Below, piece by piece: positions 370 through 54,505 of a DNA stretch of 64,000 nt. Under the pieces are notes generated by a model. The model was given only the letters and a program-made list of their open reading frames with translations. It was not told where the DNA came from and ran no database searches. The stretch's first letter is position 1; each line of letters starts with the position of its first letter. The translations under genes and the position numbers were made by a program. The stretch is from a virus (taxonomy: Duplodnaviria > Caudoviricetes): positions 32,001 to 96,000 of the IMG/VR virus record IMGVR_UViG_3300028048_000001; one strand, 5' to 3'.

Positions 370-1706
370 CGCTTTATTCACATAGAATCGTTGATATTAT
401 CTCTCTTTCTATGCAGTTCTCTTATGAACTTCCCTATATTTCTATAGGATACTAGACTATATCTTTATCTGCCAATTAGATATTCACCATTTCGATTTAA
501 AGGGTCTTACTTCCCTAAATGCCCTACCTACTTAGGCTCTAACTTCAAGATTATCTATTATGAGATATTCCTCTACAAATATCTGATATTGTGGAAATTG
601 AAAAATTTGGAAAAAACTTTTCGGTTATTTCTTTATAATTATATCCATGCTCATTAAGATTTCTAATTAAATCAGCATCTTCATCTGTAAGTCGATGAAG
701 ATTAGCAGGATTCTTTTTATATGAATCATAGTAAGATTTTGGTTGATAATTTGGATCATAATAAACCTTATTTAAACAAATATTTTGTATAGATGTACCA
801 GATATATTTTTATACCCCATATTTTGTATTTGACTATAGCTATAACCTTGATCATGAAGATCTCTAATTTTATTAGCCTCATCATAATTAAGTTTATTAC
901 AAGTTCTTACATTATTATTTTCAGCATGTATAACATTTTCTTTCATGGTGGCCCATTCAATATTAGAGTATAAAGATCCATCTGGCATAACTTTATTTAC
1001 ACAATTATTCGTTTTATCAAAATCTTTATGATTTACTGTTAATTGATCCATATTATTTATAGGATTAAATTTTTTAAGAACAAGTCTATGTATACTATAT
1101 TTCTTTTGTCCATTTTTACAATTATCTGCTGCTAAACAGACATATTGATATCCATTTGGCCGAAGATTAGGTTTAATCATTTTCCCAGATCTAATATTCA
1201 TTATTCTTCCATAGTTACTTACAGCATAATAATTTGGAAGAATATCTTTAGCTTCATTATCGGTTAAAACTTCAAATGTTTCACTTTCTTGAAGATCATC
1301 TGGTAAGAAAAATATGGCTTGTTTCATTGATGTATCATAGAGTCTTGTTCCTTTTGGACAAACTAATCCACCAAAATTACTATTTCCATTTTTTGTAACA
1401 TATTCTCCATTTTCATTATATCTTCCACTATCAGTTTCTTGAGTTGATCTCATAATATATTCTCCTTATATTTTTTAAAATTAAAATATAAAGAAAATAA
1501 TAATCTATTCAGATAGTCGTTGAACCTTCTTCTATTATTATAGAAGCTTGGCTGCTGATTGTCCATAAAATGGAGTTCCCAGCAATTAGATGAATTTTAA
1601 TATATGATATAATAACGTATTGGCATATCATATATTCGACATTATTCCCTTTATATTTTAATTATTTTTTATAACAATAATTAAAGATAACAGAGGGAGT
1701 CCGAAT
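370..1706 (-). mobile_element. Group I intron 1 carrying an HNH homing endonuclease ORF
   Basis: Minus strand: AAUUGCUGGGAA (~1576-1587), AUCAGCAGCCAAG (~1547-1559), GAAGGUUCAACGACUA (~1514-1529), P3' GGUGAAU (~482-488), AAAGAUAUAGUCUAG (~452-466); ends in G (AAAGCG) before exon 2. The ORF lies between R and P3'. Confidence 0.88.
551..1453 (-). CDS. Intron-encoded NUMOD4/HNH homing endonuclease with two C-terminal HTH-like repeats
   Basis: YAVSNYGRI (NUMOD4); HRLV...VNHKDFDKTNN...NIEWATMKENVIHA (HNH); repeated KL.....A..IR.L...GY.Y..I units; RBS AAGGAG. Confidence 0.9.
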   Translation of the reverse strand: MRSTQETDSGRYNENGEYVTKNGNSNFGGLVCPKGTRLYDTSMKQAIFFLPDDLQESETFEVLTDNEAKDILPNYYAVSNYGRIMNIRSGKMIKPNLRPNGYQYVCLAADNCKNGQKKYSIHRLVLKKFNPINNMDQLTVNHKDFDKTNNCVNKVMPDGSLYSNIEWATMKENVIHAENNNVRTCNKLNYDEANKIRDLHDQGYSYSQIQNMGYKNISGTSIQNICLNKVYYDPNYQPKSYYDSYKKNPANLHRLTDEDADLIRNLNEHGYNYKEITEKFFPNFSISTISDICRGISHNR

Positions 1707-3004
1707 ATCGTAGGGTTCCGATTTATTATTACGCTTAAACCAGGTAAACCTTTCTTCTTCTCATTATCTATTATACTTTGTATTATACTGCTTATTCTAT
1801 CTACTGGCTCAATTGTTGCTTTATACCATAATTGATGAGCTTCATTAGGACTCATATTATATGATCTGCATAATATATTTTTTATTCTTTGTTCAAGCAT
1901 TATTGCAAGTCCTATTACAGGTAATGTAACCTCATCAATTCTTAAATCGGGATTCTGAACTATAACATTTCTACTACTGAAGTTATATCGTCCTCCCAAT
2001 AAACATCTAAAATCTCCTTTTTTACCACTTAATATAGTTTCCAGCTCTGTATATAATTCCATAAATTTTTTCTGTAAATTATATAATTGCTGATTCTTTA
2101 TTTTTGGCTCTCTTTGTATTTTGGTTTTATTTCTATTTATTGTAGTTACTAATTTATTCATCATAGTATACATGGCATTTGTAGGTTCATATGTCATATT
2201 TCCATCTTTAATATCAAATGGTCTTAATAACGTAGTAAATACTGGTATACTATGTGTAAATACTATATTTCTGTGTTCATAAATATCATCATAATTTTCT
2301 TTCTTAGTAGGCCTTTTTCGTAAATAGAAATCCATTATTTCATCAAATCTTTTTACAAATTCAACCATACCAATTCCAAAAAACGGTTCATCTTTATTTT
2401 TAGTTTCAATTGCTTTACTAGATAAAGGAGTTACTATATCTGAAATATCTAAAATATTTTCTAATTTAGTTCTTTTAACTCCTTGTATAGTAATACCTTT
2501 ACCTAAGAAAATATCTATCTTTTTATAAAATGCTGGGTGTATAATAACAAAGGGATCTTTTAATACCATCCACCCAAAATAACTAAAATTATCATCTACA
2601 TATTCACATAAATGACCACATCTTGGACAACGTAATCCAGCGTTTAATCTTCCTTTTAAACCACCATCATCAGTACAATGACAACGATATCTATCTATAA
2701 AAGGATTTACATCTGCCAAAGTTTGTCCAAACCTTCTAGAAAATAATCCATCTTCTGCTTTTAAGTCTTTCTTAATATTTCTTCCAGAAGGAGCAACTTC
2801 AAATCCATTTCCAGAATCTATATCAAGTTTTCTTTCAGCATCAAAATCTATATATTCTATATAAGATTCATATTCATAGTTTTCACTATGAGGATATGTC
2901 ATTGAAGTTGATACTACATCTTTTTCATCATAGTGAAGAAAATTATTTTTATTGTGAGAATCTTCAAACAAAGATCCATATTTAATTTTTTCACTCATTA
3001 TCAT
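1707..3004 (-). CDS. rpoC: Exon 1 of non-virion RNA polymerase beta' (N-terminal/catalytic) subunit
   Basis: GLFSRRFG, Zn-binding CHC...CPRC, IPVFTTLLRP, GKKGDFR..LGGRYNFSSRNVI, INRNPT. The ORF-track tail FGLPLLSL... is intron read-through. Confidence 0.9.
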
Positions 3005-3755: not shown

Positions 3756-4367
3756 TTACCTAATGCAACTCAAAATATCATTATACCAATCCTCAATATC
3801 AGATTCGATATTTTGTGATTTTGCAATATTTCTATATTTAGGAGAATTTCCTATAATCATTATAGAATTAATTACATTAGACATAATTTCTGTTGAAGGT
3901 TTAAATTGAGTAAATTTAGTATGTGTAGTAGCAAACATTTTTCGAGCAGCAGCAACAATTGGTGTATCATGATGCTTATCTTCAAGATATATGATATTAG
4001 AAATACCAGTTTGAATGATAGCTTTAGCACATTCGTTACAAGGAAAGAGTGTAACATAAAGAGTAGAATTTCTCAGATCTTTAATGTCTCCACGATAATT
4101 TAAAATAGCATTAAATTCAGCATGAGATGACCACATATATTTATTATTAGGATCAGAAAGATCTCTGTTAGACCAATCGTACTCTGGATCATCATCAGAA
4201 ATACCATTAGGAAAACCATTATAACCAATAGAAAGAATTCTATCATCTTCAGATACAATAACTGCTCCTACTTGTGTATTAGGATCTTTAGAACGTTTAG
4301 AAATAATTTTAGCAATAAGCATATAAACAGAATCTTTAGATATTACATTGTGTCTTTTATTAGACAT
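3756..4367 (-). CDS. dCMP deaminase
   Basis: RSKDPNTQVGAVIV, GYNG, HAE..A, TLFPCNECAKAIIQ zinc motifs. Confidence 0.95.
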   Translation of the reverse strand: MSNKRHNVISKDSVYMLIAKIISKRSKDPNTQVGAVIVSEDDRILSIGYNGFPNGISDDDPEYDWSNRDLSDPNNKYMWSSHAEFNAILNYRGDIKDLRNSTLYVTLFPCNECAKAIIQTGISNIIYLEDKHHDTPIVAAARKMFATTHTKFTQFKPSTEIMSNVINSIMIIGNSPKYRNIAKSQNIESDIEDWYNDILSCIR

Positions 4368-11434: not shown

Positions 11435-11501
11435 AATTTAGAGCCCTTTCATATAGGATATTAATATAAAGTTAAATTTTAGATATTTAAAGAAAAATAT
11501 A

Positions 11502-15842: not shown

Positions 15843-17441
15843 TTAACACATTAAAATGAATGTTTCTACTTCTTCTATGATAATATTAATAGCTACTGTT
15901 TCCAATCTTTTTCCATTTATAGTAGGGTCTAAATCAACAATACTAAAATCCGATGAAATTATTGTTGCAATGATACTAAGAATATTATCAATAATATTTT
16001 CGTTTTTATATTTTTCTAATATTCTTGGATAAGAAGGAGAAGCTTCCACTAAGATTTTCTCTTTCTTATTTATAGTTTTTCTGCTTACAAGCTTTTCAAC
16101 TTTTCCAGATATAATATAAGGAAGAATAATCATGTTTTTACTTTTCAAAATCTTTTTAGCAGCGATAATTAATTTTACATATTCTTCTCTATTAATAGAA
16201 TGAATACTTTGTGTGTCTTTAAACCATCTATAAAACATTGAGAATATTAACTGTTTCTGGAATGGATTAATAGTGTAACCACCTTCTGGAGTCATTAATA
16301 CATTTCTCATATAAAGATCAATCTCTAAAGGATCAAATGGACCAAATTGAACTTCAATATTTCTCATGCAAACTTGTCCATTAATCTTATTCTGAAGATA
16401 TAACCCTTCATTCATTCTAATCAGATTGCTTTCAAATTTATCAAAATCTGATATAGAATCGTTATCTCTTTTTGATGAAGATATTGGAACATATGAAAAT
16501 TCAAATGATATATCTGTAATCTTATATGATGTATTTTTTCTAATACTTGCATAATTAAAACTAATAATATTTTTATCAAAAGTGTATTTCGGCATAATAT
16601 TAAGAATTATATTTTGTACCGAATCGGTAGAGTGAGTAGTAATATCTATTGATCTGATATCTTGCTTAATCCATATACCTTGATTATTTTTCTGATTAGC
16701 TATTACATTAGTATATGCAGTATCATATAATTTAGAATATATATCAATAGAAGTTTCCATATGAAGTATTCTATCATAAAAACTTAGCAGATAATCATCT
16801 ATATTTATATCTAATTTATGCATATAAGCATAATTAGTTAATAATGGTATACAAAGATCCATAATTATTGACATTTTATGTAATAATTTTGCATGTTCAT
16901 TTGTATACTGTAATGATGGGGATTTAATATTTGTATAATTTAAAACTTGATAATAATTATCATCAACCATCTGCTGAACTTTATTTGCTATATTAGAGTA
17001 TATAATATATCTTTCCATATCATAGAAAAACATTTCTATTGGATAAGATAAAACTTCAAATCTATCTATCTTAGATTTCATAGCAACTAATATAGATAAA
17101 TATTCATTATCTGTATCATAATAATTACAAAAATAATTTAAATATTTAAAAAGGTGCTCTCTCATTGCTACAGAATTGTAGCATTTTTTTGTTGATAAAA
17201 TAAATTTATTAAAATTATCTCCAAGACCAATAGATATATTGAAGTAAACACTTAAAGGTGCTATAAAAAATCCAGGTCTACAACTTATTATTACCTCTTC
17301 CATATCTTGAGGCCACCATTGGTCTACAGGAACAAATTTTCTTCCTTGATTCGATTTTGATTTTCTTTCTATCCTGTCCATAAAGTATATGGCAGGAACT
17401 TTCCCTTCTGTTATTTTATTAATGTCACTCATGTCGCACAT
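15843..17441 (-). CDS. Non-virion RNAP promoter-specificity (sigma-like) subunit, AR9 gp226 homolog
   Basis: Collinear with AR9 gp226 as recalled: LQYT....K.....S..M...IP.L; KLY...Y..V.........IW; I.PK......IS; E.NL.R..(E/Q)G; C-terminal EEV. Lies near a chaperonin, as gp226 and gp228 do in AR9. Confidence 0.8.
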   Translation of the reverse strand: MCDMSDINKITEGKVPAIYFMDRIERKSKSNQGRKFVPVDQWWPQDMEEVIISCRPGFFIAPLSVYFNISIGLGDNFNKFILSTKKCYNSVAMREHLFKYLNYFCNYYDTDNEYLSILVAMKSKIDRFEVLSYPIEMFFYDMERYIIYSNIANKVQQMVDDNYYQVLNYTNIKSPSLQYTNEHAKLLHKMSIIMDLCIPLLTNYAYMHKLDINIDDYLLSFYDRILHMETSIDIYSKLYDTAYTNVIANQKNNQGIWIKQDIRSIDITTHSTDSVQNIILNIMPKYTFDKNIISFNYASIRKNTSYKITDISFEFSYVPISSSKRDNDSISDFDKFESNLIRMNEGLYLQNKINGQVCMRNIEVQFGPFDPLEIDLYMRNVLMTPEGGYTINPFQKQLIFSMFYRWFKDTQSIHSINREEYVKLIIAAKKILKSKNMIILPYIISGKVEKLVSRKTINKKEKILVEASPSYPRILEKYKNENIIDNILSIIATIISSDFSIVDLDPTINGKRLETVAINIIIEEVETFILMC

Positions 17442-17522
17442 TTCTCCCTAATGCACAATATAGTTAATAAGTTATACTTTTTCAAGTATCATATTTATAA
17501 TATATATCTATTATAAATTTTA

Positions 17523-18299
17523 TTATTTTTTAAAGTGAGCAAATTTATTATCACTTATCTTTTCTATTTTTGGTTTTTTAAAATGTCCAAATTCTTTTTG
17601 ATTTGGCGATTTAAATTTAGAAGTTATTGGTACAGATAACTTCTTAAATTTATCCGATTGATTCTTTTCTTTATTATCTAATCTTTTTCTTGTTTTTCTA
17701 TCAGCATTAATTAATTCATTAGCTTTTCTAATTTTATCATCTGCATGTTCTACTGTTTGATTCCATACGTTTTTATTATATTTTTTAGCTAAAGTTTCCC
17801 ATCTTGATTTGGTAAATAAATCTCCTCTTTTAATTTCTAAATATGCAAAAAATATTGATTTTACATATCCAAGTTCATTTCTAGGATTTTTAATTTTTGC
17901 TTTTTGCTTTAATGCTAATTCACTCATTTTAGAAGATAAATCTTTTATAAACATCTTTCTAGAATTGAAAGCATAACAATAAGTGAATACAAAATTAGCA
18001 TCATTAGAATAAACTTGAATATCATAATTTTTTAAAGTCTTTTCCATTTTTACAGTACTTTTTGTAGGGTAAAATCTTATTACTGTATCATAATAAAAAT
18101 TTTTAGAAATTTCTGATGGGATTTTTAAATGAATATAATAATCATCGGATCCAACATAAAGATTATACATAATCAATCCATTTTCTTTAACTAACAATTC
18201 ATCAAACTGTTTTTGATACATTGCGTGGTACATTTGTCTATTAGTAATAATAGATGCACCTTTACCAGCAGGATTTTTTATATATTCATCAAATGTCAT
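17523..18299 (-). CDS. Basic hypothetical protein between the sigma-like subunit and the chaperonin
   Basis: HLKIPSE...FYYDTVI.F, YSND..FVFTY.Y; Lys-rich C-terminus. Confidence 0.7.
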   Translation of the reverse strand: MTFDEYIKNPAGKGASIITNRQMYHAMYQKQFDELLVKENGLIMYNLYVGSDDYYIHLKIPSEISKNFYYDTVIRFYPTKSTVKMEKTLKNYDIQVYSNDANFVFTYCYAFNSRKMFIKDLSSKMSELALKQKAKIKNPRNELGYVKSIFFAYLEIKRGDLFTKSRWETLAKKYNKNVWNQTVEHADDKIRKANELINADRKTRKRLDNKEKNQSDKFKKLSVPITSKFKSPNQKEFGHFKKPKIEKISDNKFAHFKK

Positions 18300-18711: not shown

Positions 18712-20544
18712 TTAATAATGAGAGGTTAATGCTGGCGCTTGCAAAATAGCCTGATTAGCAGTATACATGATTGTAATAATCTTAGAAATAGTATCTAAAA
18801 TTACAGGTTCAGATTCAATTGATGTAAGCACTAATCCATCATATTTTTTAGTATTAATATTATAAGGCTTTCCACCTTCTAAATAAATATTGTCAATAAT
18901 AGTATCTATAACTTCATCATTGAAGACTGTTCTATATAGAGATCTGATCATGTTAGCATATGCTTCATTAATAATTTTAATCATATTATATAAATCTCTA
19001 TTTTCAAAACCATTTCTTTCAATCATATCTCTTGTGATACAATATCCCATTGTGTTGGCACCATATCCAACACCATTTTTTGCTGCAGAACGAGTATTAA
19101 GTACAGCATCTTCTACAAGATCTCTCAAAGAATCTCTATCAGAAATTGAAATTCCTCCAATAAATAATTCAACCATATTAGCTTTAACAGCATTTAATTG
19201 TCTTTTAAGAGATCCAAGTATACCAATATTTCCACCTTGTTCTGAATTCGATTTATATTGTGCTTCTAAGAAATTTATAATATTATTGTATGTTTTACTA
19301 TATATAGGATATCCTTCTTCATCTAATTTAATATCACCTTTTTCATCTTTTTCATACATTTTTTCTGGATCGATAAATCTGGTAATATTAGCATCGGCTT
19401 CTACTTCTCCAGCTGTACCATAGAATTCGCATACGTTTTTTAAAGTAGGAGCTAATCCGCTGTCTTGATCAGCTTTATGAATTTTATCATCAATATATTT
19501 TTTGATTGGTTTACATCCACAAAGATTAGATATATGATCTACATAATTTTCATCAAGTCCAGCATAATTTGTTACAATAAGTAATTGTGGTTTTTGAGAA
19601 TATTCAGATTCACTAAATTGAAGAAGCATTTGAACAACTCTTCTCATATATGCATGAGCATCCCTACTAATTTGTGGAGCTAAAATAACAGTAGGAATTT
19701 CTCTTTGCCTATTTGATCTTTTTCTCATTATATTTTCTTCAATAATTTCAACGAATAAAGCCAATTGTTCACTAGTATCGATTGACTCAGCAAATTGATA
19801 AATATGTACAGGATATGTTTCTGTAGATCTTATACGACAATCATTTCTTTCAAGATTATTAATCATAGCAGGGTCAGAATATCCAGCCTCAATTGTAATA
19901 CCATTATATGCTTTTACATATGTATTTTCATTTGTTGAAGCTGATACATCAATAAAAACAGACATTCCATAATCTTTATAAATTTGCTGAATTTGTTCAG
20001 CAATTTCAGCACTACCATTAGTAGATATATAAGCTATATTATAAATATCGTCAATAGTACAAGCTCTTCCATTTTCTCTTACTTTTTCACTAATGAGTTC
20101 AACACATTTTTTAAATAATCTCATTGTATCATATGGATCATATCCGAATTCTCCATTAAGATATGCTTCATTTAAAGCATCAAAAATCAATGAAGACATT
20201 ACTACTATAGATGAAGTACCATCACCAACAGTTTTTTCTATATATCTAGTAGAATTTTCAATTTCAGATTTAATAGCCATTTCAATAGGATATTGATATT
20301 TAATACTCTTAATAATTTTATTACCATCTTTTGAATATTCTGCAACAATATCCTGATCAGAAGATCCTCTTAAAATAAGAGAGTTAGAACCAGCTGGGCC
20401 CATTGAATTGATTATTGCTTCTTTAAGATCATTTAAAACAGAAGATTGAATTTCCTTAAGTTTCTGTCCAGATACAATGTTGTTAACAGGCTTTGATGAA
20501 TTTACTATTACTTTAGGTATTACTCTATTTTCATTTTTCATCAT
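18712..20544 (-). CDS. groEL: Phage GroEL-like chaperonin
   Basis: SMGPAG, SKDG, GDGTSS nucleotide-binding motif, VEDAV..TRSA...GVGYGA. Confidence 0.92.
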   Translation of the reverse strand: MMKNENRVIPKVIVNSSKPVNNIVSGQKLKEIQSSVLNDLKEAIINSMGPAGSNSLILRGSSDQDIVAEYSKDGNKIIKSIKYQYPIEMAIKSEIENSTRYIEKTVGDGTSSIVVMSSLIFDALNEAYLNGEFGYDPYDTMRLFKKCVELISEKVRENGRACTIDDIYNIAYISTNGSAEIAEQIQQIYKDYGMSVFIDVSASTNENTYVKAYNGITIEAGYSDPAMINNLERNDCRIRSTETYPVHIYQFAESIDTSEQLALFVEIIEENIMRKRSNRQREIPTVILAPQISRDAHAYMRRVVQMLLQFSESEYSQKPQLLIVTNYAGLDENYVDHISNLCGCKPIKKYIDDKIHKADQDSGLAPTLKNVCEFYGTAGEVEADANITRFIDPEKMYEKDEKGDIKLDEEGYPIYSKTYNNIINFLEAQYKSNSEQGGNIGILGSLKRQLNAVKANMVELFIGGISISDRDSLRDLVEDAVLNTRSAAKNGVGYGANTMGYCITRDMIERNGFENRDLYNMIKIINEAYANMIRSLYRTVFNDEVIDTIIDNIYLEGGKPYNINTKKYDGLVLTSIESEPVILDTISKIITIMYTANQAILQAPALTSHY

Positions 20545-26563: not shown

Positions 26564-26644
26564 AGTATTATAATACTCCTTTACTAATTTTAAAGTAAAA
26601 TTTTAACGTTAAAATGTTGTTTAAGATTATAAGAATTTTATATA

Positions 26645-27262: not shown

Positions 27263-27409
27263 TTTTATAAATCATATCCTTATAATAAGGATATAACTCC
27301 TTTCTTATATTATAATTAAGTTCTGTAATTATAATACTGACAGGTATTTATTTAGTATAATATTACGAGCTCAAAAAATAATTTATATTATACTAATTTA
27401 TTAAAAATA

Positions 27410-29880: not shown

Positions 29881-29903
29881 ACCTCCTAAAGAGTATGAAT
29901 ATT

Positions 29904-29914
29904 ATACTAATGTT
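29904..29914 (-). promoter_or_regulatory. Late promoter AAC(A/T/C)-N6-TA (representative copy)
   Basis: AACA-ttagta-TA; also upstream of genes at ~7798(-), 11473(-), 27322(-), 30466(+), 35883(+), 39755(-), 41507(-), 52337(-); matches the AR9 nvRNAP consensus AACA-N6-TA/G. Confidence 0.7.
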
Positions 29915-30363: not shown

Positions 30364-30501
30364 TTTCTATTGTATTGATAAAATGATATTATTCTCTTTA
30401 TAACACCATTTCATTATTATAATATATTTTTATATTTTATTTTATCCATTATATTTAGTAGGCTGAACTTTAATATAATATTTCAAATTAGGAGTATTAG
30501 A

Positions 30502-35881: not shown

Positions 35882-35919
35882 AAACTTACATATAAATATG
35901 ATTCCAAAGGAGAATTATT

Positions 35920-41474: not shown

Positions 41475-41499
41475 TATAATACCTCCATTACTAATTAAT

Positions 41500-41528
41500 A
41501 TGGAGTTGGGCTATTAAACCCAACTCCA
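41500..41528 (-). terminator. Terminator hairpin overlapping a late promoter
   Basis: TGGAGTTGGG-ctattaaa-CCCAACTCCA; the minus strand reads AACT-ccatat-TA. Confidence 0.75.
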
Positions 41529-52293: not shown

Positions 52294-52364
52294 ATTACTT
52301 TCCTTTCATTTAATAAATAATCTATTATGTTGATGTTAAATTTGACTATATACCAAAAAAAAAA

Positions 52365-54433: not shown

Positions 54434-54505
54434 ATTAACTTTAATTAATGATAAAATCCCCCAGAAGAACTTTTCTATAATCTATATATAGGAGGAAGCT
54501 TAATA

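Follow-up and report, generated by a model that had tools for sequence, protein, structure and literature searches.

To our knowledge, the polymerase of phage AR9 is the sole multisubunit RNA polymerase known to read promoters in the template strand and to require uracil in doing so, and a thymine-tolerant version of this enzyme was previously known only as a laboratory mutant. We likewise know of only one studied thymine-DNA relative, phiKZ, and its promoter recognition is completely different. In AR9, the template-strand uracil at -10 occupies a pocket between helix 2.1bis of gp226 and the beta-N subunit gp105, where it is wedged by I207 and R363 and hydrogen bonded to K375 as well as to the V206/I207 main chain (PMC9209446). 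The C-beta of V206 lies 3.9 A from C5 of this uracil, Y210 stacks on -9G, and the valine is conserved among homologues from phages with deoxyuridine (dU) DNA (PMC9209446). The V206G mutant engineered by Fraser et al. (2022, PMC9209446) accepts uracil and thymine at -10 equally. The AR9 enzyme rejects thymine at -11 almost as strongly, via packing of the DNA backbone (PMC9209446), which V206G leaves unaddressed, and -11 would still reject thymine in this mutant. Known dU phages are AR9/PBS1, phiR1-37 and S6, and LPJP1 shows uracil-type PCR behavior (PMC8460666). The jumbo phage phiKZ has two RNA polymerases of its own, and its late promoters carry TATG at -3 to +1. This phage has thymine in its DNA, and TATG is recognized on the non-template strand through GP123, a beta-like subunit (PMC12809450).

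The window analyzed here, a stretch of 64,000 nucleotides, comprises bases 32001-96000 of IMG/VR record IMGVR_UViG_3300028048_000001, a genome of 274,241 bp with direct terminal repeats that is 100% complete according to CheckV. A 532-aa ORF on its minus strand (15843-17441) encodes a sigma-like protein of the AR9 gp226/phiKZ gp68 family. Judged by homology and modeled fold, the product is the AR9 gp226 orthologue and the predicted promoter-specificity fifth subunit of the phage's non-virion multisubunit RNA polymerase. AR9 gp226 (7s01_A) was the sole match in a phmmer search of all PDB chains (E 1.4e-6, query residues 76-495 vs 32-434), PHROG 25005 "RNA polymerase" matched at 6e-15, and tblastn matched phiR1-37 g245 at 1e-11 and AR9 at 5e-6. 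An AlphaFold2 model of the protein (pLDDT 81.4) returned 7s01_A as the top Foldseek match (E 1e-13), followed by 7um0_A (6e-11) and then by phiKZ gp68 (8que_B, E 2e-6). Sequence homology and fold thus both place the protein in the gp226/gp68 family. The fold match draws phiKZ gp68 (PDB 7OGP, 8QUE, 9RJS) into the same family, and the protein is nearer to AR9 gp226 than to gp68 by sequence as well as by fold. It shares the fold of AR9 gp226 (PDB 7S01, 7UM0, 7UM1) and a detectable sequence homology with it, but identity is only ~25% and the protein has an N-terminal extension of ~50 aa relative to AR9 gp226. The second ATG (M4) is probably the true start, as the Shine-Dalgarno spacing favors it, in which case Gly255, discussed below, would become Gly252. 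Strong AGGAGG Shine-Dalgarno sites are present in upstream regions genome-wide and, together with a whole-genome GC content of 26.6%, a value no higher than that of dU phages, suggest a low-GC Gram-positive (Firmicutes-type) host.

The gene order, from a GroEL-like gene through small ORFs to the gp226-like gene, is that of AR9, BpSp, and phiR1-37. The GroEL-like chaperonin gene lies at 18712-20544 (minus strand), and a 258-aa ORF at 17523-18299 (minus strand), which has no Pfam family match, takes the position of AR9 gp227 and phiR1-37 g244. Further subunits of the non-virion polymerase were identified as a beta-prime-N homologue at 1658-3004 on the minus strand (best PDB match AR9 7s01_d, E 1.7e-19), a beta-N homologue outside the window (G000:C1:169484-171424; 7s00_c, E 2.5e-40), and a beta-C found in the genome by tblastn (2e-75); the genome therefore encodes split beta and beta-prime subunits. 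Upstream of the gp226-like gene, at 17489-17503 on the minus strand, is an early-type promoter-like motif, ATATTATAAATATGA, one base off the motif ATATTATAAT-WW-TGA found in ~45 upstream regions genome-wide. AR9 g226 is likewise under early promoters (PMC5312081). The genome-wide motif resembles the AR9 early consensus, AAATATATATTAT-N6-G.

The peptide KLYDTAYTNVIANQKNNQGIW (K237-W257; 16671-16733, minus strand) extends from the end of one helix into the first part of a short one (residues 254-261) that is the counterpart of AR9 helix 2.1bis. In the AlphaFold2 model Gly255 stands at the start of this short helix; its codon, GGT (ACC on the plus strand), occupies 16677-16679. The original prediction had aligned this glycine with AR9 V206, and three alignment methods agree on the column: phmmer sets NNQ-G255-I-W on SDV-V206-I-W, so that G255-I256-W257 correspond to V206-I207-W208, and the same column was obtained with MAFFT (120 metagenomic homologues plus AR9, BpSp, and phiR1-37) and with tblastn using an AR9 fragment. 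The AR9 peptide given in that prediction is an exact match to KLYKIIYSRVFETKYSDVVIW, and its description of the V206 contact and of the V206G phenotype was correct (PMC9209446).

This phage and AR9 thus share the GroEL-like/gp227-position neighborhood, the I207/W208 pair (I256/W257 here), and a beta-N arginine matching gp105 R363, and they differ at V206, at Y210, which is replaced by K259, and at gp105 K375, which is not conserved in this phage or its clade. The dU-group signature D-x-V-[IM]-W-x-[YF]-L with Val206 is absent, the corresponding segment reading N-Q-G-I-W-I-K-Q. Gly255 has the same aligned position as the engineered glycine that makes the AR9 enzyme tolerate thymine at -10. That change is a laboratory point mutation in a dU-phage background assayed at -10 only, whereas Gly255 occurs naturally, within a helix that has diverged, and belongs to the many residues tolerated in the clade.

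The genome encodes a thymidylate synthase, ThyA, outside the window (G000:C1:189540-190568, minus strand; 263 bits Pfam, above the TIGR03284 cut-off) that retains the dUMP-specifying Asn and the C-terminal IAV. A DHFR gene adjoins it directly downstream. A dCMP deaminase, the predicted supplier of dUMP, is encoded at 3756-4367 on the minus strand and is also present in AR9, BpSp, and phiR1-37. Neither ThyA nor ThyX was found in any of the seven cultured relatives with valine at the V206 column (AR9, BpSp, phiR1-37, LPJP1, S6, Machias, and SA1), the DNA of which is known or suspected to contain dU. The original prediction that this phage has T-containing DNA is supported by these comparisons, and from its gene content its DNA very probably contains thymine. 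The presence of a thymidylate synthase gene is strong, though indirect, evidence of this. AR9, by comparison, combines dU-DNA with Ugi. The ThyA is 342 aa long with an insertion of ~60 residues relative to typical ThyA, and its match to the NCBIfam models is divided into two stretches.

A phage that still has dU DNA like AR9, in which the glycine would be irrelevant to genome chemistry, is a highly improbable alternative. It would fit the dCMP deaminase shared with dU phages, the very low GC content, also a feature of dU phages (PMC8460666), and the failure to find dUTPase and UDG in the genome by Pfam. The last of these does not discriminate, since Pfam detected no dUTPase, Tmk, or UDG either in this genome or in any dU phage or clade relative covered by the respective search. 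ThyA and the adjoining DHFR would counteract dU-DNA synthesis, and the contrast with the synthase-free cultured dU-type genomes (0/7) speaks against it as well. A weak further point is that tblastn found no homologue of AR9 Ugi, a search made uninformative by a query of only 84 aa.

Promoters were predicted using our own ORF calls (280 genes, 181 upstream regions of the genome). Of all 4-mers in upstream regions, AACT shows the strongest strand asymmetry, with 66 sense vs 28 antisense occurrences. Nineteen copies of AACT-N5-ATAAT are present in the genome, 15 of them intergenic and 14 in the correct orientation no more than 80 nt from a gene; for AACA-N5-ATAAT the figures are 17, 11, and 10. 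When the spacing is N4 or N6, or when AATT, AAGT, or ATCT is substituted for AACT, nearly every copy lies in coding sequence. AAC(A/T)-N5-(A/T)TAA is thus enriched, at a strict spacing, in oriented intergenic DNA, and the predicted late promoters, AAC(A/T)-N6-TA, have the layout of the AR9 late promoter, AACA-N6-T(A/G) (PMC5312081), and differ from the phiKZ arrangement. In this respect the expectation that AR9-type promoters are kept is supported for the layout; a motif by itself does not distinguish which of the two strands is read. A control on a 45-kb AR9 chunk recovered ACA-N6-T(A/G) at rank 6 only (p 9e-5), indicating that the scan is modest on small samples.

Within the window, an example of the late-type promoter (AACT-N5-ATAA, i.e., AACW-N6-TA) is found at 30466-30478 on the plus strand, 24 nt upstream of a 432-aa gene. 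Other copies of the motif are located on the minus strand at 11461-11473, 26609-26621, 27310-27322, 29902-29914, 41495-41507, and 52325-52337, and on the plus strand at 35883-35895 and 54468-54480. The motif in the window precedes large, probably structural, genes.

Homologues of the gp226-like protein are numerous (701 at E<=1e-3) and none of them is from a cultured phage. Similarly, 20 kb of window sequence had zero megablast matches in a cultured-phage collection, and the clade has no cultured member there. In the tree, the seven cultured Val-type sequences (99*) stand apart from 76 metagenomic sequences that include this phage (99*), with approximately one change per column on the stem of each group, and this phage is accordingly placed outside the dU group.

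The V206 column, two residues before an invariant Trp (the AR9 W208 position), was read in 75 IMG/VR loci fetched for this count. Glycine was observed in 16, Ile in 12, Val in 9, Lys in 8, Arg and Thr in 6 each, Pro and Asp in 5 each, Leu in 3, and Glu in 2, and Ala, His, and Ser were also seen. The column thus accommodates at least 13 residues in the clade, with 22 changes on the tree, and ranks as the 31st most variable of 202 columns, whereas the I207/W208 positions are conserved. In the deeply diverged dU group the same column is invariant Val (7/7 cultured genomes), though neighboring columns vary there.

The distribution of glycine could be read as a sign that Gly255 is a specific adaptive counterpart of V206G, opening the -10 pocket to the 5-methyl group of thymine and required for T-containing promoters. 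Besides the behavior of the engineered AR9 mutant at -10 (PMC9209446), this reading could draw on glycine being the most frequent residue, on its appearance in at least five separate lineages on the tree, and on its invariance in all relatives at least 58% identical to this protein; selection for a small residue is possible given its frequency and its fixation among close relatives. This genome and six of seven near-complete Gly-type genomes also encode ThyA, the seventh encoding ThyX. Against this, Lys, Thr, and Ile occupy the column among relatives within branch lengths of ~0.1, and thymine at -11 is barred in AR9 by backbone packing that V206G does not address (PMC9209446). Since the column is so variable in the clade, Gly255 does not stand out as the enabling change.

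The distribution of synthases argues further against a requirement for glycine. Among 30 clade genomes at least 90% complete, 26 encode a thymidylate synthase, 13 of them ThyA and a different 13 ThyX, and four have neither. The synthase-positive near-complete genomes carry G, V (G036/G037), I, L, H, T, K, D, or P at the V206 column. Glycine was also considered as a marker of ThyA, but the association comes mostly from one subclade, and with ThyX counted 26/30 genomes have a synthase whatever the residue. As to a correlation of this residue with genome chemistry across the clade, which the original prediction had suggested looking for, what emerges is a difference in constraint: valine is fixed in the dU phages, and the position varies freely in the thymine clade. 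ThyA and ThyX exclude each other throughout the clade (30 near-complete genomes; IMG/VR records behind L006-L080, handles G001-G050), suggesting repeated swaps between the two synthase types.

The promoter signal is equally indifferent to the residue. At least 200 kb was fetched from each of 11 relatives, giving a comparison of 12 genomes including this one that carry G, V, I, K, D, R, L, or T at the V206 column. AAC-N7-TA is two to five times more frequent than expected in sense-oriented upstream DNA in all 12, the non-Gly genomes included, and the motif does not exceed expectation when spaced by N6 or N8. The AAC is fixed in 12/12 genomes, and we found no covariation of the V206-column residue with the -10 or -11 promoter base. 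The claim that a Val-to-Gly change is what permits thymine finds no support in these comparisons, and we regard the adaptive reading of Gly255 as unlikely. Because bulky residues coexist with synthases and the same promoter, the steric argument made for AR9 cannot be transferred unchanged. A link between glycine and T at promoter position -8 (AACT) was examined and set aside: Gly-type genomes have T there more often than most others do, but the ranges overlap (39-53% T in Gly-type genomes vs 21-45% in others).

The variability of the column, which includes Lys, Arg, Asp, and Glu, might instead mean that residue 255 makes no contact with the -10 base in this clade, that the AACW element is read otherwise (in the non-template strand, or by a beta-like subunit as in phiKZ), and that the alignment to V206 is positional only. 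The loss of the AR9 Y210 and gp105 K375 equivalents is compatible with this, since the pocket may function otherwise or not at all without them, as are the reading of TATG in the non-template strand by phiKZ GP123 (PMC12809450) and one relative, G016, that lacks the arginine equivalent to R363. However, the promoter agrees with AR9 and not with phiKZ in its element, in its AAC core, and in the distance from the element to the TA start. The I207/W208 pair is conserved with an invariant Trp, the beta-N arginine is kept in 10/11 genomes of the clade, and gp226 is a much nearer relative of the protein than gp68 is. We therefore judge the absence of contact to be quite improbable, more so than the adaptive reading. 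G016 (record behind L028; beta-N with NLVSAT for GIYRIS) is also the only examined genome with Lys at the V206 column, and the two changes could represent a compensatory swap across the pocket, although this is a single case.

The reading we favor as the probable one is that Val206 is locked in the dU phages and that this constraint was lost in the thymine clade, Gly255 being one permissive state and not the enabling change. The phage is a member of a large uncultured clade, sister to the dU-DNA jumbo phages (PBS1/AR9, BpSp, LPJP1, S6-like, and phiR1-37), that retains the predicted AAC(A/T)-N6-TA promoter layout, equal to 3'-TTG-5' at template-strand positions -11 to -9. We infer that a pocket formed by I256/W257 and the beta-N arginine recognizes the AACW element on the template strand, and that the geometry of this pocket differs from that of AR9 enough to leave room for the 5-methyl group beside bulky side chains. 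Thymine would be provided by a pathway from dCMP deaminase through ThyA to dTMP, with DHFR encoded beside ThyA. Val206 would be invariant in dU phages because it allows the polymerase to reject thymine-containing (host) DNA; such selection would be absent in the thymine clade, leaving the position to drift through its many residues.

These observations describe a natural clade in which AR9-type predicted promoters are paired with thymidylate synthesis. The fixation of valine in dU phages only is evolutionary evidence that independently backs the role of V206, and the steric rule in its simple form, by which thymine is barred by any side chain at 206, fails to carry over to the clade. A comparison of this enzyme with that of the Val-type, ThyA-positive relative G036 would show how tolerance of the 5-methyl group is achieved. 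A limited literature search that included a 2026 jumbo-phage review (PMC13282480) turned up neither an account of a thymine-DNA clade that has AR9-type promoters nor one of natural V206 variation.

A broader proposal, which we advance tentatively and with less confidence than the loss of constraint itself, is that a large and wholly uncultured clade of thymine-DNA jumbo phages from rumen and gut uses AR9-mode reading of 3'-TTG-5' in the template strand by way of a pocket between the sigma-like and beta-N subunits, with position 206 acting as a natural U/T selectivity switch. The switch would be locked as Val only where a phage needs to distinguish its dU-DNA from that of the host and otherwise be free, most often resting at Gly, in genomes that reverted to thymine or stayed with it. 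If this is true, the clade would offer a ready natural series for studying how a polymerase reads base chemistry, and the few Val members without a synthase, such as G008, would be candidate new dU-DNA phages.

G008 (record behind L015) is 200,990 bp long with inverted terminal repeats, is 100% complete, has Val at the V206 column, and encodes neither ThyA nor ThyX. From its sequence it is a candidate dU-DNA phage within an otherwise synthase-encoding clade. The other genomes lacking both synthases are G007, G010, and G035, with Pro, Ile, and Arg, respectively, at the column.

Two irregular gene structures were also noted among the relatives. In L048/L049, L052, L053, L072, L074, L075, and L078 the gp226-like match spans 1.8-2.1 kb for ~500 residues, and the gene is probably interrupted by an intron, intein, or inserted ORF. 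In G026 (record behind L053; C1:206943-207823), ThyA shows up as two neighboring segments (144 and 217 codons), for which a frameshift, an intron, or splitting of the gene could be responsible.
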